Virus record (IMG/VR): IMGVR_UViG_3300037070_001066
Coordinates: 40,772-104,771 of that record
From: a virus
Length of the DNA: 64,000 bases
Reading direction: 5' to 3' (one strand)
A model generated the notes under the pieces. It worked only from the letters and a program-made list of their open reading frames with translations. It was not told the origin of the DNA and made no database searches. Position 1 is the first letter of the stretch. Every line of letters begins with the position of its first letter. The position numbers and the translations under genes are program-made. Shown piece after piece: positions 1 to 42,100 of the stretch.

Positions 1-312
1 GAATTCTCACTATTTTCATTCTCTAAAAAATATCCAGCACTAAGTTTAGGAGGTTCCACTTCTGTTTTGTTAGAAGTCTATGAGGTTACTGAAGAAATTT
101 TAAAGACAATAGATTACTATGAAGGGTGTAATGACATAGATCCTTATATGAATATCTATAATAAAGCAGAGATTGAAACTCCGTTTGGTGAATGTATTAT
201 CTATATCTACAACAGGATGGTAGTAAACAAGCCGCTTATTGAATCAGGTGATTGGTTTAGATTTAAAAAAGAAGTAAGACAACGAATAGAAGAAACAAGA
301 AAAATAGTATAA
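1..312 (+). CDS. Gamma-glutamylcyclotransferase (AIG2-like), 5' partial
   Basis: Frame is open from base 1 (EFSLFSFSKKYPALSLGGSTSVLLEVYEV...IDYYEG), matching the GGCT pattern YPAL..EVYEV..LD..EG, with C-terminal IESGDW. Adjacent to ATP-grasp/amidoligase genes. Confidence 0.8.
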   Translation, partial: EFSLFSFSKKYPALSLGGSTSVLLEVYEVTEEILKTIDYYEGCNDIDPYMNIYNKAEIETPFGECIIYIYNRMVVNKPLIESGDWFRFKKEVRQRIEETRKIV

Positions 313-315
313 ATC

Positions 316-1194
316 ATGGTAATAAACATTAATTCAAAAAAGAAAGTAGGAGATGTTCTATTATCAGTTGCATTAAGAACTGGTAAATATGTTCCAATGA
401 TTAGAAGCAGACATCCTTCTCATGCAGGTTTAAGAAGAGCTTTACCTAAACTTCCGTTTAGAAGTGTCATCAGACTAGGCTCTCTGACTGTATTAGAGGA
501 CGATAGCAGCAAGAAAGGGAACAGGGTGGAACTGAACAGTGCATTGGCTATAAAGAATAGCTCTAGCAAGCTTAAAATGAAGCAATGTTTTACTCAAGGA
601 GGCGTTAAAACAGCTGAATGGATATATTCTACAAGTGAGAATGATATCATAAATTGGCTGAAGGAATATCCAATTGTGGCTAAAAGCCATATGGGTTCTC
701 GCGGAAGAGGAAATACATTGTTGAAAACTGAAGCTGAAGTAAGAGCTTTTATTAGAAGCAAGGATCTTTCACATTACATTTTTGAAAAGTATTATAACTA
801 CAACAAGGAGTATAGATTGCATGTCAGTGCTGACGGTTGCTTTTATGCTTGTAGAAAAATGCTTAAGAATGAATTTAAAGATCATCCTAATGCGTGGCAA
901 AGACATGATGACAATTGTTCTTGGATACTTGAAGAGAATGAAATGTTTGACAAACCTACAAATTGGGCTAATATAATTGATCATTGCGTTAAAGCATTGA
1001 TTAGTTGTGGTCTTGATTTTGGAGCATGTGATTTGAGAGTTCAAAACAATATTGATAAAGAAGGAGTTAGAAGACTTCAACCTGACTTCATTGTTGTAGA
1101 GATTAATTCTGCGCCATCATTTGGTAAAGTTACTCTTGAAAAATACAAAGAAGTATTACCTCAACTTTTAGTTAAAAAACATGAAAATCGTTAA
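316..1194 (+). CDS. ATP-grasp ligase (phiEco32-like/RimK-related)
   Basis: Motifs PIVAKSHMGSRGRG, EYRLHV, GLDFGACD and VVEINSAPS. Confidence 0.85.
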   Translation: MVININSKKKVGDVLLSVALRTGKYVPMIRSRHPSHAGLRRALPKLPFRSVIRLGSLTVLEDDSSKKGNRVELNSALAIKNSSSKLKMKQCFTQGGVKTAEWIYSTSENDIINWLKEYPIVAKSHMGSRGRGNTLLKTEAEVRAFIRSKDLSHYIFEKYYNYNKEYRLHVSADGCFYACRKMLKNEFKDHPNAWQRHDDNCSWILEENEMFDKPTNWANIIDHCVKALISCGLDFGACDLRVQNNIDKEGVRRLQPDFIVVEINSAPSFGKVTLEKYKEVLPQLLVKKHENR

Positions 1195-1402
1195 AAAAGG
1201 AGATGAACCAACTTTTGTTCCTATAACCTTATATATTACTATAGAGAGCAAAGAGGAGCAAGAGACGTTATTATCATTATTTAAAACAATAACTTCTCAT
1301 GAGTTAACAACAATTGCTTTAAAGAATACAAAAGAACATCTTAACCAAAAGGTTATTAGCACATTTATAGGAGGTTTTTATAATTCATTATTAGATAAAT
1401 AA
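1181..1402 (+). CDS. Hypothetical protein
   Basis: 73-aa ORF overlapping the upstream stop and filling the operon; F.PITL.ITIES.EE N-terminus resembles small phage proteins. Confidence 0.6.
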   Translation: MKIVKKGDEPTFVPITLYITIESKEEQETLLSLFKTITSHELTTIALKNTKEHLNQKVISTFIGGFYNSLLDK

Positions 1403-1409
1403 AAAAAAC

Positions 1410-2150
1410 ATGAAAAAAATAATTGGAGTTTATGCTGATGTAGCAAATGGTAGAGTTGGTCAAACAGCTCCGTATATGCAATTCTTAGGTCAATTTGGTA
1501 ATGTACGTTTAATACTACCTACTGACAATTTAAGAGAGGTTGCAAAAAGTATTGATATGTTAGTATTGCCTGGAGGTTCTGATATAAATTCTGCCAAATA
1601 TAATCAAGCGCCAGATATTATGACAGGACGTCCTAATATGCATTTTGATTATTTAGATGCTAATCTGTTGCCTTTGGTAATTGAGATGAAGAAACCTATT
1701 TTAGGTATTTGTCGAGGTATGCAAGCATTAAATGTTCACTTTGGTGGTACATTAAATCAGCATGTTATTGGTCATCACCAAGGAGACAATCGTGCTGCTA
1801 CAAAGCAAGAAATTCAATTTGAAGACGGAAAGAAACCGCATATGATTAACTCTATGCACCATCAATCTGTTAACATTTTAGGAGATGGTTTTGAAATTGT
1901 AGCTTATAGCCAATGTTATCAAGGATGTTATTCTGAAAAGAAACATGTTAGAAACTGGTATTTTGTTGATGACAAGAAGAAGAAAGAATTCTTTGAATGT
2001 ATTGTCATCATTGAGATGATTAAGCACAAAAATCTTCCTATTGTTGGAGTTCAATGGCATCCAGAGGAGTTCAATTGTAAAGTTACAGTTGATTGTATTA
2101 ACACTTTATTAAAAGAATATGAAGAAAAAGTTAGCAGTCCTAGTAAATGA
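1410..2150 (+). CDS. Class I glutamine amidotransferase / peptidase C26 (PuuD-like)
   Basis: LPGGSD, PILGICRGMQ (catalytic Cys), NSMHHQ and GVQWHPE (His-Glu). Confidence 0.9.
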   Translation: MKKIIGVYADVANGRVGQTAPYMQFLGQFGNVRLILPTDNLREVAKSIDMLVLPGGSDINSAKYNQAPDIMTGRPNMHFDYLDANLLPLVIEMKKPILGICRGMQALNVHFGGTLNQHVIGHHQGDNRAATKQEIQFEDGKKPHMINSMHHQSVNILGDGFEIVAYSQCYQGCYSEKKHVRNWYFVDDKKKKEFFECIVIIEMIKHKNLPIVGVQWHPEEFNCKVTVDCINTLLKEYEEKVSSPSK

Positions 2151-2799
2151 TTCAGCAGATTATGAATCTTATGTTGCGTTCCTTAAACTAAAATATGATA
2201 TTGAGCTTGTAAAGCTTTCTTCTATTGCAAAGAAAGAAACGATTCCTGAGATTGATTTAATGTTGTTTACTGGAGGAGAAGATGTTGATCCAGCTTATTA
2301 CAATGAGAAACCTGGAAAAAGAACATTCTATAATCCTTCAAGAGACAATGATGAATCTAAAATGTTTAGAATGCTAAATCAAAAGATTCCAAAACTTGGA
2401 ATTTGTAGAGGAAGTCAATTCTTAACTGTAATGAGTGGTGGTAAATTAATACAACATGTGGAAAATCATGGTATTGGTGGAACTCATTCAATTACATTTG
2501 ATTATATTCATAATCATAAAATGCAGATTACGTCAACGCATCACCAAATGATGTATCCTTTTGATTTATCAAAGAAAGAATATATACTTTGTGCTTATGC
2601 AACCAACTATTTAAGTCCTATATACTTAAATGGTAATGACAGAAACATTGAAGTGCCTGAAGAATTCTTGGAGCCAGAGATTGTATTCTATCCTAGAAGT
2701 AATTCTTTAGCAATTCAAGGTCATCCTGAATCTGGTATTATGTCAGATGATGGAAAAATGTTTATATTGAACTATATAGACAATGTATTAAAGCTTTAA
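2119..2799 (+). CDS. Second class I glutamine amidotransferase / peptidase C26
   Basis: FTGGEDV, LGICRGSQ, STHHQ and IQGHPE. Confidence 0.9.
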   Translation: MKKKLAVLVNDSADYESYVAFLKLKYDIELVKLSSIAKKETIPEIDLMLFTGGEDVDPAYYNEKPGKRTFYNPSRDNDESKMFRMLNQKIPKLGICRGSQFLTVMSGGKLIQHVENHGIGGTHSITFDYIHNHKMQITSTHHQMMYPFDLSKKEYILCAYATNYLSPIYLNGNDRNIEVPEEFLEPEIVFYPRSNSLAIQGHPESGIMSDDGKMFILNYIDNVLKL

Positions 2800-2824
2800 C
2801 ATTAAACCTTTAAATTATAAAAAC

Positions 2825-3643
2825 ATGGAAAAAATTGTAGAAAACAAGCATGGAGTTACCTTAGGTAGTGATCCTGAGATTTTTATATGTAATGCTGAAG
2901 AGATCGTCTCAGCAGAAGGTTTAACAGGTGGAACGAAACACGATCCCGTTCCAATTAGCGAGGAAGGACATATGATTCAAGAAGATGGTATTGCTCTCGA
3001 GTATAACATACCAGCTTGCTCCACAGTAGAGGAGTTTATTGCTCATCATGAATTTGTTCAAGACTATTTTAAAGTTTTAATCGCCGCTCATGGTTATGAG
3101 TTTAGCAAAGAAAGAAGTGCGGATATTAATCCAATCTTCTTGCAAACTGAGCAAGCTCAAACATTTGGGTGTGAACCTGATTATAACGTTTATACTAGAA
3201 GCGAGAACGAAGCTCCTGAATCAGGACAGAATTTAAGATGTGTTGGAGGTCATATTCACATTGGATATCCAGATCCAGACCAAGACGTTACTGAGAAAAT
3301 TGTAATGATGTTTGACATGTTTGCAACCTTGCCATCTCTATTTAAAGACAATGATACGCGTCGTAGAGAATTGTATGGTAAAGCCGGTAGTTTTAGGTTT
3401 AAGATTTTTGGATTAGAATGTAGAGCATTGTCTAACTTTTGGATTCATACAAGAGAAGACATGACTTGGGTATGGAATCAAACAATGAGAGCTGTTAATT
3501 GTGTTCTTGACGGAGAGTCTGATGCTTTAATTGAAAAGTATTCTTCTGATGTTAGAAATGCAATTAATACTGCTGATTTAAAATTAGCAGCTGAATTGAT
3601 GATCATGATTGATCATGAAGTACAAAAAGAAGTGGTAGAATAG
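2825..3643 (+). CDS. phiEco32-like COOH-NH2 ligase type 2
   Basis: LGSDPEIF, EDGIALEYN, GCEPD, GGHIHIG, RRELYGKAGSFR and ECRALSNFW. Confidence 0.88.
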   Translation: MEKIVENKHGVTLGSDPEIFICNAEEIVSAEGLTGGTKHDPVPISEEGHMIQEDGIALEYNIPACSTVEEFIAHHEFVQDYFKVLIAAHGYEFSKERSADINPIFLQTEQAQTFGCEPDYNVYTRSENEAPESGQNLRCVGGHIHIGYPDPDQDVTEKIVMMFDMFATLPSLFKDNDTRRRELYGKAGSFRFKIFGLECRALSNFWIHTREDMTWVWNQTMRAVNCVLDGESDALIEKYSSDVRNAINTADLKLAAELMIMIDHEVQKEVVE

Positions 3644-3664
3644 ACAAACAAACAAGACTAAATA

Positions 3665-5632
3665 ATGGAAATAAAAATTTTATTACTACTATTATTAGCA
3701 CATTATATACTCTTCTTTCTATTTAGAGGGAAGGGTGATGTGCTCGCTTGCGGTATATTTGGATGGTCTGGAAGCAGAACTACAAGATTTAACAAGCAAA
3801 AATTTGATATTCTAGGACTTTTTAACAATTCAAGAGGTGGAGATTCATGTGGAGTGTCTACAGATGGAGAAATCTATTATGGTACACTTTTAAACAAAAG
3901 TTATGATGACTTTGTTGTTAACAAGAATTATCTTTCTCCTGTAAGAATTCCTGTTGTTATTGGACATTCTCGTAAAGCAAGTGTTGGAGCTGTAAGTGAA
4001 ACAAATGCTCATCCATTTGGATTTGGAGATTTAGGAGAAGGTCATGCTTTTATTGGGTGTCATAATGGTACTTTAAGCAATTATGAGGAACTTGGTAAAA
4101 AATATGAAGTCGAAACTTCTGTCTACAGTGAAAGAAATATGTTCCTAAGGACTAAAGTAGATTCTGAAATACTATTGGAGATACTATATAAAACTAAAGA
4201 TACGGAAGTATTACAAGAATATATAGGAGGAGCTGCTTTATTATTCCAAAATTTAGAAGAACCTAACACATTATTTGCATTTCATGGAGCTTCTAAAAAA
4301 GAAGTTGGAGATAGAGGTGAAACTTTATACGAAGAAAGACCTTTATATTACTATCAAGAAGCAAAAGATTCAGTTTACATTTCTTCAATAGAAGAAGCTT
4401 TAATATTCATAGGTGGAGAAAAAGACAAAACTGTTTTTGAATTTGATCACAATCTTTTGTACAAAATCAAAGATGGAAATGTTGATAAAGCTGTAACTTA
4501 TGAAGTGGACAGGAGAGGAGCTGGCCAAAAGAAACCCTATGGGGGTGCGGGTTTTTGCATGGGTGGGACGGCTACTGGGACTAATACTGCCAGAAACCAC
4601 GGTCCTGCCAAAAGGGGAAAGCGAAAAGAAAGAAGTAAATCTAGACGGTTCAAACAAATAGCAAATGTCGCAAATATATACGATGAAACTGTTATTGAGG
4701 GAGACTTTAAATCTGCAATATATTATAACAAATTAAGATATTGGAGAAATGGTCACTTAATAGATGGTGTTTTCACATATATTAAAGGATTTGGTTTGTA
4801 TAAGATCGGAGATCAAGCTTCTGATTCAAATAATAAATTGTATCAATTGATGGGAGAACACTTTAGTCTTGAAGATGGTATGTTTTTAGATACTGTTTAT
4901 TTAGAACAAAGACTCGCTCTTGATGAAACTATATTTGTACCATTTGAATTTAGTACAAAGGAACCACCTGTATTCTTCTTTCATAATGGAATCATGCTAG
5001 AAACAATGCATGACTTTGCTGCATTAAATGGAGAGTATGCAAGTAAATTTTCCTTTGAACATTTATCGCAAATGTCTAAATACCCTATCTGTAGAATGCG
5101 CAAGAATCGGCCAGACAATAACAGACAAGAAATACTTTATAATGGTCAGCCTTATACCAATAATTTTATACCTTTGCAATGTAATAATTGCTACAATATT
5201 GAAAATGGTAATTTAATCAATATAGATAGGTTAGAAGAAATTGTTGTGAAAGAAGCTGAAATTTGTTGTTCTGTTAAGATTCCTTCTACTAATGAGGTGA
5301 TACAGTTGCCCATGGAATTTGATGCTCCAATTATGGGGCCGAATAGTTTGATCAATGCATATCATCCTGCTAGACCAACTGTTGAATTTCTGGATGAAGA
5401 TCCTCCTATTGAAGATTATTTCCAAAAAAAGGGAGATGATGAAAAGGTTTTGAGCATCATTAATAAGCACATTATGCCAGTTTACACACAATTGCAAACT
5501 TGTAATGAGGATCTTAAAAATGAAGAAGATGAAACTATTCAAGAGCTTATTGACTTAAACAAGGATTACTTATTGAGTGTTGACTGTATTGTTGAATCAA
5601 AATCCAAAGAAAATGAAGGAGAAGCTAGTTAA
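3665..5632 (+). CDS. Class II (Ntn) glutamine amidotransferase with hydrophobic N-terminal leader and long C-terminal extension
   Basis: CGIFG at residue 29, RGGDSCG, GHSRKAS, NAHPF, HNGTL, VDSE and ERPL. Confidence 0.85.
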   Translation: MEIKILLLLLLAHYILFFLFRGKGDVLACGIFGWSGSRTTRFNKQKFDILGLFNNSRGGDSCGVSTDGEIYYGTLLNKSYDDFVVNKNYLSPVRIPVVIGHSRKASVGAVSETNAHPFGFGDLGEGHAFIGCHNGTLSNYEELGKKYEVETSVYSERNMFLRTKVDSEILLEILYKTKDTEVLQEYIGGAALLFQNLEEPNTLFAFHGASKKEVGDRGETLYEERPLYYYQEAKDSVYISSIEEALIFIGGEKDKTVFEFDHNLLYKIKDGNVDKAVTYEVDRRGAGQKKPYGGAGFCMGGTATGTNTARNHGPAKRGKRKERSKSRRFKQIANVANIYDETVIEGDFKSAIYYNKLRYWRNGHLIDGVFTYIKGFGLYKIGDQASDSNNKLYQLMGEHFSLEDGMFLDTVYLEQRLALDETIFVPFEFSTKEPPVFFFHNGIMLETMHDFAALNGEYASKFSFEHLSQMSKYPICRMRKNRPDNNRQEILYNGQPYTNNFIPLQCNNCYNIENGNLINIDRLEEIVVKEAEICCSVKIPSTNEVIQLPMEFDAPIMGPNSLINAYHPARPTVEFLDEDPPIEDYFQKKGDDEKVLSIINKHIMPVYTQLQTCNEDLKNEEDETIQELIDLNKDYLLSVDCIVESKSKENEGEAS

Positions 5633-7625
5633 AACAATTAAAGGAGAAGATCGTAATGAGAAAGACTGTAGACTTATTGATGGACAATACTATTATATAG
5701 GGGACATCCATAGAGAAAACTCTGGAGATATATATCTAATTAACAATAGATATATAAGAGCGTCTACTGAAAGAATCGTATTCGATCATTTTGAAGGTGA
5801 GTATAAGTTGAAAAATAGCAGTTTAACTCATGGTATAATTGATATTGAAGACGGAACTCCTGTATTTGGTTATTTCTCTAAAAATGATCTTTATAACGTA
5901 AAGGTTATAGTTAAGGATTTGAGCGAAAGAGTTGCAATTTCAGCAAATGTACTTGGATATGAATTCAGAGAAAGAAGATCTGATGGAGTGTTCTATCACA
6001 TTTCCCTTTTAGATGCTAATAAGTTTAACCTGCTTAGAGGTATTTCAAGAGAAATAAAAGAAAGCTTTCCTTATGATTCTAAAGGGTCTATTGCTAAAAT
6101 TACAAAAACATTTGAGTCTAATTACAAACCTGTTATTTGTAGAAATGCAGAAATTGTAGGTAAAACTTTAAAGGATTATACATTTGGATTAGAGTTTGAA
6201 ACATGTGCTGGAATAATACCTAATAATAAATTAGTATACTTGCCATTAATACCATTGAGAGATGGTTCAATTAGCGGTATAGAATATGCTACAATTCCAT
6301 TAAAAGGTCCAGTAGGAGTTCAAGCATTAATTGATTCTGTAGATGAATTGAAAAGAAGAACATCCTATAGTGATGAATGCTCTTTACATATACATGTTGG
6401 TGGTATGCCAAGAACGACTGAGTATATATTAGCATTCTACAAGACTATATCATTGTTGCAAAATGACATATTTTCAATGTTCCCGCTTTACAAGAAATAT
6501 AATTTTGGCGTTAAACGTAAAAACTATAGCGCGCCATTTCCATTTGAAGAGATTAACTTTAGAATGGATCCGATCATAAATTATAATGATAAAAAGCAGG
6601 TTAATAAGAATTTTGATCATTTGTTCACATATTTATCTGGAGGTGTAACTTTCGCAGAATATGGTAATGATTTAAGTCAAGTACTTGTACATCCTCAAGA
6701 TCCTCAAGGAGCTGCTAAATGGAATATTAAGCATAGATATTCTTTTGTAAACTTAATTCCTTTAATATTTGGAAATCATCAAACTATTGAATTTAGAATT
6801 CATACACCAACGTATGATATAAATAAAATATTGGATTTCTTGATGTTGAATATTTATATAATTGATTATGTTAACATAAACTATAAATTGATTCTTGCAG
6901 GCAAAGATACTTTATCTATCATGAGACCAAGCTTGCAGTTTATGTTAAATGATTATGTAAATAACATTGAAGGAAGTAGTAGAAAAACTATATTTAATGA
7001 GTTAAATCGTTATATTAGTGAAAGAAAACATGCTTCTGAAGACATTGCAAGAACAAAAGGTGTTGTTTACCAAGAAGAAGACTTAAGACTTCCTAAAGGT
7101 TTAGGATTTAATACCTACAAATACCATAGATCAAATGGATCTTATTTTTCAGCTTCATATCTTGAAGATATTCTATACGAAAGTAGTCTGAGTAGCTTTG
7201 ACAGCCCTTTTGCTGAGGCTTCTATTAAATTCGAAGATGTAAATCCTTCTGCTAAATTAAAACTTCGCAGTGATGTTGGAGTTTCTCCTAAAAGGAGGCC
7301 AAGAGATTTAGCTAGAGAGAAAGAAGTTTTAGAATCTTCAAGAAAAGCTCTTGAACAGATACAAGCATCTGAAAAAGAACGTTTAGATAAGGGGTTAGGT
7401 GGAGGTTTATATGAGCAAATGAGACAAGCTGCTGAAATTAGATATTCTCTTAAAGACAATGGAACTAGGCCTGTAATTTCAGATCCTGGAACTTTATCTG
7501 GACTTGGTGTATCTACTTTTGGAACTAGCGGCTCTGTTCAAGTTAAAGAAAGTTCTTATGATTGGACTCTTAAGGCTTCTAAGTCTAATGATGATTGGGA
7601 AGAATCTATACATAAACCAGAATAG
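5613..7625 (+). CDS. Putative amidoligase (glutamine synthetase-like COOH-NH2 ligase fold)
   Basis: FGLEFET, RDGSISGIEY, CSLHIHVG, RYSFVNL and TIEFRIH. ATG at 5613 preferred over TTG at 5577. Confidence 0.82.
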   Translation: MKEKLVKTIKGEDRNEKDCRLIDGQYYYIGDIHRENSGDIYLINNRYIRASTERIVFDHFEGEYKLKNSSLTHGIIDIEDGTPVFGYFSKNDLYNVKVIVKDLSERVAISANVLGYEFRERRSDGVFYHISLLDANKFNLLRGISREIKESFPYDSKGSIAKITKTFESNYKPVICRNAEIVGKTLKDYTFGLEFETCAGIIPNNKLVYLPLIPLRDGSISGIEYATIPLKGPVGVQALIDSVDELKRRTSYSDECSLHIHVGGMPRTTEYILAFYKTISLLQNDIFSMFPLYKKYNFGVKRKNYSAPFPFEEINFRMDPIINYNDKKQVNKNFDHLFTYLSGGVTFAEYGNDLSQVLVHPQDPQGAAKWNIKHRYSFVNLIPLIFGNHQTIEFRIHTPTYDINKILDFLMLNIYIIDYVNINYKLILAGKDTLSIMRPSLQFMLNDYVNNIEGSSRKTIFNELNRYISERKHASEDIARTKGVVYQEEDLRLPKGLGFNTYKYHRSNGSYFSASYLEDILYESSLSSFDSPFAEASIKFEDVNPSAKLKLRSDVGVSPKRRPRDLAREKEVLESSRKALEQIQASEKERLDKGLGGGLYEQMRQAAEIRYSLKDNGTRPVISDPGTLSGLGVSTFGTSGSVQVKESSYDWTLKASKSNDDWEESIHKPE

Positions 7626-7627
7626 AC

Positions 7628-8326
7628 ATGAAGGTAATCTATTACAAAGAAGATAGTAGCTTTAATTTGGCTGTTGATTATGGTAAAATGATTGGTAATG
7701 GTTGGTCTAGAAGATTGAAAGAATATCTTCACAGTAAGGATATGCAAGATACTATGTATGAAGTTTCTAAATTATACACTAACAAGCATTTAGCTATGTT
7801 TCCTGCAAAGGATCAAATTTTCGCTTCATTAGGTAAAATGGATCTTACTGAGATTAATGTTGCCATAATAAATTGTAATCCTACGTTTAATTATAGAAGT
7901 AATGGCGTTGCCTTTTCTAATACATCTAAGCACAGAGGAGATATCGACCTTCAATTGTCTAACTTATTTGATAAGATAAACATCTATGAAAGAAGAACAT
8001 CTTCTGCTGAGGATTACACTTTAGACCATTGGATAGAACAAAGTGTGTTTTTATTCAATGTATCATTAACTGGATTCACTAGTTATAACCAACGTTCTTT
8101 ATGGTTTGGATTCTCAAGAGCTGTTATTGAGACCATTAGTAGATGTAGGCAAGGATTAGTTTTCTTATTTATAGGTACAGAAGAACAATGCAAGCTTTAC
8201 AGCGAAAAAGTCGACCAACGAAAACATACGATTTTAAGACACGATACACTTAGCTATGACGCGCTAAATGAAGTCAACCTTGAAATCGATAGTATAGATG
8301 GTAAAGATTATAGAATTAAATGGTGA
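7628..8326 (+). CDS. Uracil-DNA glycosylase-like protein with degenerate catalytic motifs
   Basis: Family-1 UNG scaffold (FPAKDQIF, NGVAFS, LDHWIEQSVFLFNVSLT, LVFLFIG), but GQDPY reads NCNPT and HPSPLS reads HDTLS. Confidence 0.7.
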   Translation: MKVIYYKEDSSFNLAVDYGKMIGNGWSRRLKEYLHSKDMQDTMYEVSKLYTNKHLAMFPAKDQIFASLGKMDLTEINVAIINCNPTFNYRSNGVAFSNTSKHRGDIDLQLSNLFDKINIYERRTSSAEDYTLDHWIEQSVFLFNVSLTGFTSYNQRSLWFGFSRAVIETISRCRQGLVFLFIGTEEQCKLYSEKVDQRKHTILRHDTLSYDALNEVNLEIDSIDGKDYRIKW

Positions 8327-16143: not shown

Positions 16144-16265
16144 TAAAATCAATAATTAATGGCAATGAAGTTTATGTATATTGGAATGGTGAATTGATTT
16201 ACAAGAAATGGTTTAATCAAGAACACGGTGTTGTTTTTCAAAATTACAAAAGATGGCATACATAG
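16134..16265 (+). CDS. Small hypothetical protein (43 aa), absent from the ORF track
   Basis: Manual translation MSIIKSIINGNEVYVYWNGELIYKKWFNQEHGVVFQNYKRWHT*; overlaps both neighbours and fills the gap exactly. Confidence 0.65.
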   Translation: MSIIKSIINGNEVYVYWNGELIYKKWFNQEHGVVFQNYKRWHT

Positions 16266-17335
16266 ACAGAGAATACCATAAATTGCTAAATGCAATTAAA
16301 AGAGATGGTTATACGTACGAAGATCCTAACAGAGAAGGAGTTTTTAGGACAGAGATTACAAGTTTTACAATAAGGCATTTGTTTAAAAATGGATTTCCAT
16401 TGATAAGTACAAGGGAGTTGAATTATAATAATATTATAGTCGAACTTCTTTGGTTTCTTAAAGGAGATACAAACATTAAATATTTAGTTGACAGAGGTTG
16501 TAATATTTGGAATAAAGATGCTTATAAGTATTATTTAAAAAAAGGAGGACACGCTTCTGAAAAAATGTTTAAAACTTTAGTATCACAACAAGATGAATTT
16601 GACTCAAGGATTAAAGATTATAAGTATGGTGATTTAGGTCCAGTTTATGGTAGACAGTGGCGTAATTTTAATGGAGTTGACCAAATAGCTAAGTTGATTA
16701 AAGGTCTTAAAGAAAAACCTTTAGGAACTGAACATATTGTAAACTCTTGGAATCCAGCAGATATTCCTGATATGGCTTTACCTCCTTGTCATTATGGATT
16801 TCAAGTTGTAGTTAGACCATTAACCGTATCTGAAAGGTTTCATGCAACTCCTGGTGCTAATCTAAAAGATGTTGATGTGTTTGTTGAGAACGCACATATT
16901 ATTTATTTAGATGGAATAGGGGCGCCTAAATATGGCTTCGAATTACACTGGGAACAAAGATCTGTAGATACCTTCTTAGGTTTACCCTATAATATAGCCT
17001 CCTACGCTTCATTAGCGTTGATCTTAGAGAAGATAACAGGTCATGTGGCACTAGGTATCCAAGGAAATTTAAAGAAGGTGCATTTGTACGATAATAGCCT
17101 CAATGCAGTAGCTCAACAATTGAAGAATGATCAGTATTTGAATGACGAATGTAAATTAGTATTTCCTGAAGACGAAGTTAATCCAGATGGACTTGATTTT
17201 AATCTTAGAATGGGATATTTAAGGGGGAATTTGAGCCTAAATGATTTCATTGAGGAAATGAAACCTGAGTGGTTTTCTATTGAAGGGTATTCACCTTATC
17301 CTTCAATTAATGTACCAATGTTAGCAAAAGATTAA
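16253..17335 (+). CDS. thyA: Thymidylate synthase ThyA (divergent)
   Basis: ELLWFLKG, LGPVYGRQWR, MALPPCH, QRSVDTFLGLPYNIASY and HLYDN. Confidence 0.92.
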   Translation: MAYIDREYHKLLNAIKRDGYTYEDPNREGVFRTEITSFTIRHLFKNGFPLISTRELNYNNIIVELLWFLKGDTNIKYLVDRGCNIWNKDAYKYYLKKGGHASEKMFKTLVSQQDEFDSRIKDYKYGDLGPVYGRQWRNFNGVDQIAKLIKGLKEKPLGTEHIVNSWNPADIPDMALPPCHYGFQVVVRPLTVSERFHATPGANLKDVDVFVENAHIIYLDGIGAPKYGFELHWEQRSVDTFLGLPYNIASYASLALILEKITGHVALGIQGNLKKVHLYDNSLNAVAQQLKNDQYLNDECKLVFPEDEVNPDGLDFNLRMGYLRGNLSLNDFIEEMKPEWFSIEGYSPYPSINVPMLAKD

Positions 17336-39112: not shown

Positions 39113-42100
39113 AACTTCTTCTTGTTAAAAATCCACCATATGCTGAAACGGTAACTTCTTTACCTTCTGCATTTAAATATTTGTCTCCAGCTTTAAGTGT
39201 AGGAGGAGTTTTTCCTAATGCAGCTTCTTTCATTTTAGAAATCTCTTCTGGAGTTGCAACTTTACCTGTCTTTTTATTTACAAGATAATTACCTCTTCTA
39301 TCGTATCCATACATATTAGCAACTTGATCCATTCTGTCATTTTCTAATCCAATTGCTCCAATATCATTACCTATTTGAGATGTAAACTTAGATCTTTGTG
39401 AATCATAATTTGCAATATCTTTATCATAAGTTTCTCTATCATAGTCAGATTTACCTGCATTATATTGAGCAATTTGACTTTTGTATTGTTGTTCTTGCAT
39501 TGCTCTGTTTATTCTAATATTCTCAAGACCTTCTTGCGTTTTAGATATAGCCTCATTTTGCTGTGCGCCTATACCTAACATTGCTGCTCTTTGTTGTGCT
39601 TGACTACCTCCCATTTGACCTAAAGCTCTATACTTATTATTGTATGCAGCATTTATATCTCTCATTGCTCTAGCTTCATCTACTTGAGGCACATTGTAAG
39701 CATCATTAAGTCTAGCAGAATATGTTCCTGTAGGTTTAGTTATTTTATCTCTTTCTATGTAGTTAGATATAGCAGGATATAATCTCATTGCTGAATTAGC
39801 TGCGCCTTTTAAATCTCCAGCATTTTCACCTAAAAATGAACTTGCATTTGGATTACTTGCATTTGCACTTATATTACCAAAATCATTTTGTAAAGTATTT
39901 CTATTTAAATATTGACTAGCTAAATCATCAGTTATGCCTTTATCTGTTAAAATACCTTCTTCGCCATATTTACCTCCTCCTAAATATTTCTTTTTAATCA
40001 ATCCACCATTCTTGGCATAAGTAGGAGTAGTCTTGTCTTTATTTTGAGCTATTGTGTTTACTGCTTTCACTATATTATCATTATCATATGTTCTATAAAA
40101 ATTTTCAGATTCAGCACCTGCTGCTTTAGTTCTAGCTTCAAGATCTGCTCCGTCTTTGATAACTTCTCCAGGTTTTAAACCAAGTTTAGTTCTAAATTGA
40201 TGAAAGTTCCCATAAGTCTCTTCAGGAGTTTGCATGTATCTTTTTACATCTCTCTTGGCATTTTTCACCTTTTGATCATAAGGACTTCCTAAAACTTTCT
40301 GAGTTGCTGGTCCTAAGATAGAATCAACTCCCATTCCATGTGCAATCTCATGATCTACTACACCTTTACCTGCTCCTTTTTCAAATACTGTATTCTCATT
40401 TGGATATCTAGAGAATTGAGCTTGAGTTCCATCTCCAGGAGTTCCTGCGCTTATTGGCACATTTAGACCGTGAGCTATTAAAGGATTTAATACATTAGAA
40501 TCCATTCCTGTATTCTGAGTAAATCTTCTTCTAGTTTCAGGATTGTTGTACCAGTTTTGAATATTATTTCTTGCAGAGATAACTTCTTGGTCGTTGCCTG
40601 TGTATGGTTTTATTTTTTCATTTAAACCAATTCTTCTAGGTTCTTTTCTAGTTCCTGAAGCAGTTGCTTGAACTATTCCAGTTGTGCTTGGTATTGCATA
40701 CATTCCATATTCTTGTGGCAATGTAGGTCTAGACATTTTGTTTACACCAAGTATATCATTAGGTTTATTGTAGAAATCATTAGCATTATATTTAGGAGGA
40801 TTTATATGACCACCATCTGCAAAACTATCTTTAACAGTTGAATATCTTTCTTTTAATTCTATTTTAGGATTTATTTTTCTAGCTTTTTTAGCATATTCAT
40901 CAATCATTCTTTTTTCCCTGCTGCCTTGATCAATTGTTTCTGACAACATTTGAGGAACTCCTCCTGGTAATATTCCTATAATATCAGCAGGATTGTAAGA
41001 TTTATTATTATTATACGAGTCATAAATACCATACATAGATCCAACATTACCTGGAAATTTTGAAAGGACACCTCTATTTAACAATTTACTTGACACTTGC
41101 AATGCGTCTGCACCTCTTTGTACTGTATTAGTATCGTCTTCTGAAGTAACTTTTCCTCCACTTGCATATTTAGAAGGCTTATGTGTAATATAACCACCCA
41201 TTGCAGCTACACGTTCTTCTGCAGGACCACCTATACCTGTCCATGCACTTGAATTAGGCATACCCGCATTAACTTTATTAATCAACATATCTTGGCCTTC
41301 AGCTATATTCTTTTTAGCCTTTTGTGAACCAAAATATCCTGACGCTCCACCTATAACTGCACCTGCTGCTGCACCCCAAGGCCCAAACATCATACCAGCT
41401 GAAGCTCCTTGTACAGCTCCTGACGCTATAGCACTACCAGCCTTTGGTGAAGTATTACCAGTTTTAGCAGTATTGTATAGATCAAATGCTGTTCCAGCTG
41501 CTTTCATATAACTTCCAGCACCACTTAACATCCCTGACGTAGCATCAGCTCCGCCTGCAGCAGCTCCGGCTCCAGATCCAGTTAAACTAGTTGGCATAGC
41601 AGGAGCCTCAATAGACTGAGGCATAGATTTACTTTGATCATACATACTACTAAACATACTACCATAAGAACCTCCATTATCAAATGATTGTTGTTCTCCA
41701 GCATATTCTTCCATTCCTTCAGGAACTTCTGTATTTTCAGGAGCAACTTGCTGAGAGTTCATCTGCATAGCTTGTTCTAGTTGCTCTTGCTGAATTCTCT
41801 TTTGTTCAGCTAACTGTGTGGCTCTTTTTGTAAACGCATCTAAAGTTTCTTTATCAGCTTTACTACCAGCTTTATCTTTAAACTTACCACTAAGTTTACC
41901 CATGTATTCACCAGCAGTTACAGGAACTCTACTAGATGGTAGTCCAGCTGCTTTAATCTCTTCAGGAGACCATACTTGTCTATCTGAAAATATATACTTA
42001 GATCCTGTAGGTTTTTCTGTAGGAACGCCACTTTGATCAAGATTTACAGAAGTCTCTCCTTGCTCAACTAATGAATCTTCACCTAAAGGAATTCCTGAAT

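Follow-up and report, generated by a model that had tools for sequence, protein, structure and literature searches.

An amide-ligase cassette of a marine-type crAss-like phage: constant core, optional hydrolases and candidate products

What do phages make with a set of amide-bond-forming enzymes carried among their replication genes? The question is raised by the left end of a 64,000-nucleotide (nt) stretch of viral DNA (the window), which is the right-hand 64 kb (positions 40,772 to 104,771) of IMG/VR record IMGVR_UViG_3300037070_001066, a single virus record of 104,771 bp rated complete by CheckV. Its first 7,625 nt encode a cassette of seven enzymes, among them three carboxylate-amine ligases. 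It is one more intact member of a cassette known for more than 15 years and already annotated in crAss-like genomes. We consider it probable that this is the crAss-like version of a phage system for gamma-glutamyl amides or unusual peptide bonds. New here are only a tandem pair of Peptidase_C26 enzymes and some crAss-specific accessory domains, which are modest variations.

The phage amidoligase cassette was first described in 2009 (Iyer et al. 2009, as quoted in later papers) in phages of the phiEco32, LUZ24/PaP3 and RIO-1 types and has since been reported in hundreds of phages. A seven-gene cassette of the same kind is present in RIO-1-like podoviruses (PMC5498523), and the same genes occur in LUZ24-like phages (PMC3890496, PMC11945000) and OM43 phages (PMC10580990); the cassette also appears in PMC4819975. 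The COOH-NH2 ligase is found in 316 deposited phage genomes, of which 121 belong to Pseudomonas and 94 to Escherichia phages, phiEco32 being one of the latter; cr108_1, a crAss-like phage of the gut, is likewise among the 316.

Gene content of the cassette

The genes of the cassette are listed below with their window coordinates, strand and family matches. Lengths are in amino acids (aa); GS and GCL denote glutamine synthetase and glutamate-cysteine ligase, GATase denotes glutamine amidotransferase, Ntn denotes N-terminal nucleophile and ORF denotes open reading frame.

1..312, + strand: AIG2-like gamma-glutamyl cyclotransferase (GGCT) of the GGACT family (PF06094, 6.3e-14 for the full 140 aa; phrog_2520, 2.1e-13)
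316..1194, + strand: RimK-like ATP-grasp carboxylate-amine ligase, 292 aa (phrog_2599, 8.6e-34)
1181..1402, + strand: ORF73, 73 aa, of doubtful status, no family match
1410..2150, + strand: C26a, Peptidase_C26/class-I GATase, 246 aa, a divergent paralogue (PF07722, 7.3e-32)
2119..2799, + strand: C26b, Peptidase_C26/class-I GATase, 226 aa (PF07722, 7.8e-20)
2825..3643, + strand: COOH-NH2 ligase type 2, 272 aa (PF14395, 27.3 bits, cut-off 25; phrog_3815, 6.6e-72)
3665..5632, + strand: class-II (Ntn) GATase with extra domains, 655 aa (GATase_6, 6.2e-10)
5613..7625, + strand: Amidoligase_2 protein with a GS/GCL/PafA-like fold, 670 aa (PF12224, 22.2 bits, cut-off 22; phrog_2443, 2.6e-23)

A first-pass annotation had named these seven enzymes, and all of its calls are correct, with family matches throughout. 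The catalytic residues that we checked are present in every enzyme. The annotation also suspected that the cluster extends to the left of the window. The GGCT gene does cross the edge, starting 110 nt outside it (genome position 40661; locus L003, 15661-16083), and the window holds its C-terminal 103 aa. It directly follows a DNA primase gene (phrog_12622, 4.6e-59), so there is no further extension of the cluster in that direction. Downstream of the amidoligase are genes for a UNG-family protein, RusA, a PD-(D/E)XK exonuclease, ribonucleotide reductase and a ThyA-family protein. The genes of the cassette are indeed as tightly packed as the term operon implied, with intergenic gaps of -32 to +25 nt, but the tight spacing runs on into the flanking replication genes. 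The cassette is therefore part of a long co-directional replication block and no separate operon. Scans for consensus promoters and terminators gave matches at chance level only, with Bacteroidota-type promoters lying outside the consensus used.

A constant core and three couples

We collected 55 viral loci with a COOH-NH2 ligase and annotated them by iterated profiles built from the window proteins. The other cassette genes were found as follows.

Amidoligase: 51 of 55 loci
ATP-grasp: 50 of 55 loci
Ntn-GATase: 49 of 55 loci
C26: 42 of 55 loci
GGCT: 21 of 55 loci
Amidoligase and Ntn-GATase adjacent: 49 of 49 loci with both
C26 and COOH-NH2 ligase adjacent: 41 of 41 loci with both (in the window, C26b lies directly upstream of the ligase)
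ATP-grasp and GGCT adjacent: 17 of 21 loci with both

Of the 55 loci, 48 have all three ligases and the Ntn-GATase; among the other seven, four or five are truncated at a contig end. These four genes are the constant core of the cassette, while the putative erasers, C26 and GGCT, are optional; GGCT, a short protein, may have been undercounted. Whatever the overall order, the genes always travel as three couples of a ligase and an amidohydrolase. The suggestion that the cluster is a complete write-and-erase pathway was thus an overstatement, because the C26 and GGCT enzymes are dispensable and because C26 and the Ntn-GATase could equally donate ammonia.

Two gene orders are found. In podovirus-type and Privateer-type cassettes it is [C26]-ligase-(a conserved gene of ~200 aa)-amidoligase-GATase-ATP-grasp-[GGCT], where brackets mark optional genes. 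In crAss-like phages it is primase-GGCT-ATP-grasp-(variable small ORFs)-C26-ligase-GATase-amidoligase-uracil-DNA glycosylase (UDG). The cassettes of phiEco32, LUZ24-PaP3 and RIO-1-PA11 share with the window the COOH-NH2_lig, Amidoligase_2, class-II GATase, ATP-grasp and GGCT families, often C26, the same three couples, and a position among early and replication genes, but their gene order differs from the crAss-like one. The link that the first-pass annotation drew to phiEco32-like clusters is well founded. Unlike them, the crAss-like copies have no ~200-aa gene and add an N-terminal beta domain to the amidoligase and a middle domain plus a helical hairpin to the GATase.

The ~200-aa gene belongs to a family of ~200-220 aa with an R-Q-Y/W-R/K-R-G motif (36 sequences from about 35 loci), lying between the two GS-type ligases of podovirus-type cassettes (L016-L058; e.g. 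L035:10760-11413); it probably corresponds to UFV-P2 ORF22. We considered whether this gene is the counterpart of an extra crAss domain. There was no match by hmmsearch, and hhalign aligned a 10-residue motif only (E = 0.5-0.6), so the idea is unsupported.

The closest cassettes are those of Cellulophaga phage phi14:2, a member of the Steigviridae in the Crassvirales, and of the uncultured gut phage cr108_1. Genes g037-g041 of phi14:2 occupy the same slot between primase and UDG, in the order GGCT, ATP-grasp, COOH-NH2 ligase, Ntn-GATase, amidoligase, with 33-52% protein identity. The slot and order are the same in cr108_1 (gp_22626-22632), whose record annotates 'ATP-grasp', 'putative amidotransferase', 'putative COOH-NH2 ligase' and 'glutamine amidotransferase' between primase and UDG and leaves GGCT without annotation. 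They differ in their C26 genes: phi14:2 has none, cr108_1 has one (the 'putative amidotransferase', before the COOH-NH2 ligase) and the window has two. The place of ORF73 is taken in cr108_1 by two unknown genes (about 300 aa). In the first-pass annotation the cluster was called expanded. This holds only in comparison with phi14:2: a seven-gene cassette was already known from the RIO-1-like podoviruses, and the C26-ligase pair is present in 41 of the 55 loci and in cr108_1. The one addition is the second, divergent C26.

ORF73 itself has no Pfam, PHROG or NCBIfam match and no homologue by tblastn or blastp in 55 related loci. We considered it as a conserved tag or carrier and ruled this out on those grounds. 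In close relatives the slot between ATP-grasp and C26a is occupied by an unnamed family of ~131-164 aa, often as two paralogues, with an N-C-Q motif and an (I/L)L(I/L)D(I/V)K-like strand (L005:7526-8349, L006:7783-8601, L007:7788-8595, L008:8173-8589, L017:3060-3461 and L004:7152-7646). The window has no member of this family, only ORF73 at that position.

The ligases

Alignment with 13 relatives places the start of the Amidoligase_2 protein at ATG 5613, not at GTG 5577. The protein has the following parts.

5613-6002, + strand: N-terminal beta-rich domain of ~130 residues, predicted local distance difference test score (pLDDT) about 90
about 6171-7112, + strand: ligase core with the GS/GCL/PafA fold, followed by a variable disordered tail

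The alignment profile found no match in the PDB by sequence, but the AlphaFold2 (AF2) model of the core (mean pLDDT 70) matches Dop (Z = 10.8), PafA (9.8), GshF (9.7) and YbdK (9.5). Glutamine synthetases and glutamate-cysteine ligases match likewise, and all are tied within Z = 9.5-10.8. About 230-240 residues superpose on Dop and PafA with a root-mean-square deviation (rmsd) of 4.4-4.8. Invariant residues are E194, E196, D217, E224, H259, H261, E393, R395 and H397. Characterized members of the GS/GCL/YbdK/PafA/Dop superfamily activate the gamma-carboxylate of glutamate as an acyl phosphate. For the N-terminal domain, the ESM Atlas gave no structural neighbors except further viral clusters of the amidoligase type.

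The COOH-NH2 ligase shares 35% identity with its phiEco32 counterpart. The 36 columns that are invariant among 23 diverse phage homologues are charged in many cases and include D16, E18, an FGCEPDYN block, GGH, R180, K186 and E198.

The ATP-grasp protein is 52% identical to g038 of phi14:2. Inspection by eye finds the typical lysine and the Asp/Glu-Asn metal-binding motifs. It also matches TIGR00768 (rimK_fam) at 1.3e-09, below the cut-off. Its Pfam score, like that of the amidoligase, is marginal, so that both calls rest on PHROGs, synteny and fold.

The amidotransferase, the paired C26 enzymes and the cyclotransferase

The class-II GATase is built from four parts.

3665-3748, + strand: leader of 28 aa, hydrophobic and predicted to be helical
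3749-4519, + strand: Ntn domain, followed by a disordered basic linker
4670-5239, + strand: crAss-specific middle domain of ~190 residues
about 5429-5626, + strand: C-terminal helical hairpin

Its Cys29 is aligned with Cys1, the N-terminal nucleophile of PurF, and 15 homologues show no variation at C29, R103, N134, G135 and D166. PurF also matches the AF2 model (mean pLDDT 69) in structure, with Z = 23.6 and an rmsd of 2.4 over 214 residues. Further matches of the model are GlmS (Z = 23.3), EgtC (20.5) and AsnB (19.9), and in all cases the superposition begins at residue 28-29. Eight of the 15 GATases compared begin with Met-Cys, and the window copy and six others (phi14:2, L004, L006, L007, L012 and L024) have extra residues before the catalytic cysteine, mostly a similar hydrophobic helical leader of ~28 residues. 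Since Ntn activity requires its removal, the leader is best read as a propeptide, and this is probably what it is.

A profile of the middle domain was compared with 1.8 billion representative proteins. It found 338 clusters at 50% identity, essentially all fused behind an Ntn domain. Because this architecture is essentially the same in all clusters, the domain offers no functional lead. A search of the ESM Atlas with the C-terminal half of the GATase gave template-modeling (TM) scores of 0.24-0.27 only. The accessory domains of the crAss-like proteins may act as substrate adaptors.

Both C26 enzymes keep a complete set of the active-site residues examined. C26a has the cysteine nucleophile (GICRGMQ) and the His-Pro-Glu of the triad, aligned with Lin1909 (3fij) and GuaA; C26b has the cysteine (GICRGSQ) and His-Pro-Glu, and its PDB matches are 3fij and SpuA (7d4r). 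PuuD (6vtv) is also among the PDB matches of the C26 enzymes. The paralogues score higher with the Peptidase_C26 model than with the GATase model (111 versus 58 bits and 72 versus 32 bits). Weak NCBIfam matches include PuuD and gamma-glutamyl-CDP-amidate hydrolase, far under the equivalog cut-offs.

C26a and C26b are 27% identical. In a maximum-likelihood tree the C26a type forms a clade on a long stem (support 100/100) with the C26b type as a weakly supported sister group (86/77), and the internal branching of the two groups agrees where it is resolved. Separate clades, matching branching orders and low identity together indicate that the pair is old and stably retained and did not arise by recent duplication. 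Eight crAss-like relatives have both genes as in the window. Four others carry just the C26b type in the cassette, although one of these has a C26a-type gene elsewhere, and in one relative the second copy is placed between GGCT and ATP-grasp. The C26b type is common to all C26-bearing crAss-like relatives. C26 homologues are also present in PA11/TC6/O4, CVT22, CW02, Vibrio and phiM6-type phages.

The GGCT protein aligns with Escherichia coli YtfP (1xhs, 1.5e-08). The glutamate of its E-V-Y motif, which we take to be the catalytic residue, is conserved.

The phage and its primase-UDG junction

The phage is crAss-like, of marine type (Steigviridae/Asinivirinae-type). The first-pass annotation had applied the crAss-like label, and it is borne out by the major capsid protein, which is 60.1% identical to that of phi14:2 and 45-46% identical to those of the gut crAss-like phages cr111_1, cr108_1 and PhiCrAssBcn. 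The order of the replication module, primase-...-UDG-RusA-exonuclease-ribonucleotide reductase, agrees with phi14:2 and cr108_1. At the DNA level the region matches only phi14:2 and Proteus phage Privateer.

The site of the cassette is variable among crAss-like phages. In crAss001, of the same subfamily, the interval between primase and UDG (gp79-gp75; L060:7017-12239) holds a ThiF/E1-like enzyme (8e-16) and three unknown genes, with a weak Prok-JAB match (4.9e-4, below cut-off). In Flavobacterium phage FpV4 the primase is directly followed by UDG, and in cr113_1 by a resolvase. As these three phages differ at this point, the amidoligase cassette is an accessory insertion at a junction where gene sets of the ATP-dependent conjugation type vary from phage to phage. 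FpV4 carries a 'thiamine biosynthesis' (ThiF-like) gene just past UDG; no ThiF was found in the genome of the window. We rejected UDG as a functional partner of the cassette, since it follows the primase in cassette-less crAss-like phages too and its position reflects inherited gene order.

The UNG-family gene after the cassette (7628-8326) matches NCBIfam ung at 1.9e-18, well under the equivalog cut-offs, and has no Pfam UDG match at 0.01. The ThyA-family protein further downstream (16253-17335) has 360 aa, ~90 aa above a typical ThyA, and its profile matches fall in 2-3 stretches; this implies an insertion.

Proposed function

How might these enzymes work together? As the crAss-like version of a phage system for gamma-glutamyl amides or unusual peptide bonds, the cassette would be expressed together with the replication genes. 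Its three ATP-dependent ligases, RimK-like ATP-grasp, COOH-NH2 ligase type 2 and Amidoligase_2, would act in the cytoplasm and form one amide bond each. Jointly they would build a short, partly gamma-glutamyl-linked peptide-like product, or an extension of this kind on an amine-bearing acceptor. The Ntn-GATase would most likely hydrolyze glutamine and pass the ammonia to the acyl phosphate of the adjacent amidoligase, giving a carboxamide. The PuuD/SpuA-like C26 pair and the GGACT-like cyclotransferase would remove or recycle gamma-glutamyl groups; they are accessory, because many lineages are without them. The gene content, the catalytic residues checked, the folds of two of the proteins, the co-conservation and the three couples are established here, and we infer the gamma-glutamyl chemistry, the ammonia transfer and the hydrolase roles. 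The acceptor is probably a small amine or a peptide, the latter including a peptidoglycan precursor. A protein seems an unlikely acceptor, and a nucleotide or DNA a still less likely one. The candidate targets that the first-pass annotation named, cell envelope, host proteins, a small anti-defense metabolite or a nucleotide, are reasonable ones.

Several points weigh against this proposal. We found no experimentally determined product, substrate or phenotype of the cassette in the literature, as the first-pass annotation had said of the product. Two of the three ligases were recognized with marginal Pfam scores, 26.5 bits against a cut-off of 27 for ATP-grasp and 22.2 against 22 for Amidoligase_2. 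The COOH-NH2 ligase profile found no sequence relative in the PDB, and its match to the amidoligase profile was not significant (E = 0.095, probability <1%). The 28-aa leader ahead of the Ntn nucleophile would have to be removed for the GATase to be active. Finally, the C26 enzymes could equally be ammonia donors to the COOH-NH2 ligase, by analogy with MurT/GatD, instead of hydrolases.

The acceptor could lie in the cell wall. In this case the ligases would extend the cytoplasmic stem peptide of UDP-MurNAc-peptide or lipid II by further residues, or amidate its residues, and the wall so altered would block superinfection or be prepared for lysis. The 'gamma-glutamyl amide' or 'peptidoglycan modification' proposal is the published one (Iyer 2009 and Hardies 2013, in the form in which PMC5498523, PMC11945000 and PMC10580990 quote them). 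The hosts of cassette-bearing phages span Pseudomonadota and Bacteroidota, so the target must be something widely conserved, like the stem peptide with its gamma-D-Glu. Some Ntn-GATase copies have a membrane-like leader; however, this would be no stable membrane anchor, given that Ntn activity needs its removal and that half of the homologues are without it.

In MurT/GatD a class-I GATase works with a ligase, in AsnB/LtsA a class-II GATase is combined with a synthetase, and both of these wall amidation systems make a carboxamide on the stem peptide. The two GATase-ligase couples of the cassette may be seen as parallel to these systems. The likeness is one of analogy, and the cassette ligases belong to neither the Mur-ligase nor the AsnB-synthetase family. 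Scans against Pfam, PHROG and NCBIfam matched no cassette protein to Mur-ligase, racemase or D-amino-acid enzyme families. Moreover, the C26 and GGACT enzymes have characterized relatives whose known substrates carry gamma-L-glutamyl, not D-isoglutamyl, groups, and the cassette lies among replication, not lysis, genes. Modification of peptidoglycan precursors is thus possible without being probable.

A free small molecule is the other tentative answer. The product would be an oligopeptide, either gamma-glutamyl-linked or amidated, or else an amine (for instance a polyamine) carrying a gamma-glutamyl group, and could serve DNA packaging, redox supply or counter-defense. The PDB matches of the C26 enzymes include SpuA and PuuD of polyamine pathways, and the weak NCBIfam matches noted above point the same way, but this similarity is at the family level and far under the equivalog cut-offs. 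The pairing of a GS-fold ligase with a C26 hydrolase would mirror PuuA/PuuD and PauA/SpuA, that of ATP-grasp with GGCT would mirror BtrJ/BtrG in butirosin synthesis, and that of a GCL-like ligase with ATP-grasp would mirror glutathione synthesis. Unlike the polyamine systems, however, the cassette has no linked polyamine oxidase or aminotransferase, and its COOH-NH2 ligase is no PuuA orthologue. Nor is any transporter, tailoring or precursor-supply gene linked to it. A pathway with a transient gamma-glutamyl handle would in addition fit poorly with erasers that are optional.

Protein tagging, in which the RimK-like or PafA-like enzymes would attach glutamate or a peptide to proteins of the host or the phage and the hydrolases would be de-taggers, is in our view unlikely. 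Dop and PafA are the top matches of the amidoligase core, although tied with GS, GCL and YbdK, and the ATP-grasp is RimK-like. The crAss001 set of ThiF beside a weak JAB-peptidase match, in the same slot, is another of the conjugation type, but the slot may be a mere hot spot for accessory genes, as FpV4 and cr113_1 suggest. No Pup-like or ubiquitin-like small protein was found, ORF73 ending in LLDK and having no homologues, and there are no proteasome genes. The ORFs of the genome share no common C-terminal peptide and no acidic or SSB-like tail.

A role in nucleotide or DNA modification, with glutamyl or amide groups placed on a nucleotide or a modified base for DNA protection or to give a nucleotide-derived effector, is improbable. 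The cassette does lie beside the primase in a block of replication and nucleotide metabolism in two unrelated phage groups (PMC3890496), and Lee et al. (PMC8989533) describe viromes in which thymidine-hypermodification genes have domains of amidoligases and amidotransferases next to them. However, the adjacency of UDG is inherited synteny. The ThyA-family protein passes the curated equivalog cut-off for thymidylate synthase (203 versus 108 bits), and nothing indicates a hydroxymethyl-pyrimidine precursor. Near the cassette we saw neither a kinase nor a glycosylase-like transferase of a known pathway; no genome-wide scan was made for these. Very improbable, in our view, is a new chemical class of phage nucleic-acid modification, in which the GS-fold and ATP-grasp ligases would put a gamma-glutamyl or amide group on a nucleotide or DNA base or build a nucleotide-derived counter-defense molecule. 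In a milder variant the cassette would be a protein-conjugation module interchangeable with the ThiF/JAB-type set of crAss001.

For the system that we favor, one making gamma-glutamyl amides or unusual peptide bonds, identifying the product would matter, as at least 316 deposited phage genomes are concerned, including those of therapy-relevant Pseudomonas and E. coli phages. The copy in the window makes this no easier to test, and its core is shared by the tractable phages phiEco32, LUZ24 and phi14:2. For tests in such a phage, the rule of three couples and the division into core and optional genes are useful constraints.

Putative mobile elements and a possible salvage enzyme

In some relatives cassette genes are split by inserts, one of them with a GIY-YIG-like ORF inside: C26a in L004 (7648-9336), the COOH-NH2 ligase in L017 (4871-6127) and the amidoligase in L008 (12751-15470). 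In L008 there is also a GIY-YIG-like ORF of 245 aa between ATP-grasp and C26a. The inserts suggest homing-endonuclease or intron traffic through conserved genes. In the phage of the window, a homing-endonuclease-like ORF with GIY-YIG and NUMOD3 (L003:9792-10382; genome 34792-35382) lies in the replication module, upstream of a DnaB-like helicase gene.

Also to the left of the window is a gene for a 563-aa protein of the NAPRTase/NAMPT family (L003:4552-6243; genome 29552-31243), with matches to PF04095 (6.9e-33) and a NAMPT_N domain. It possibly serves NAD+ salvage of the sort that some phages use against NAD-depleting defenses.

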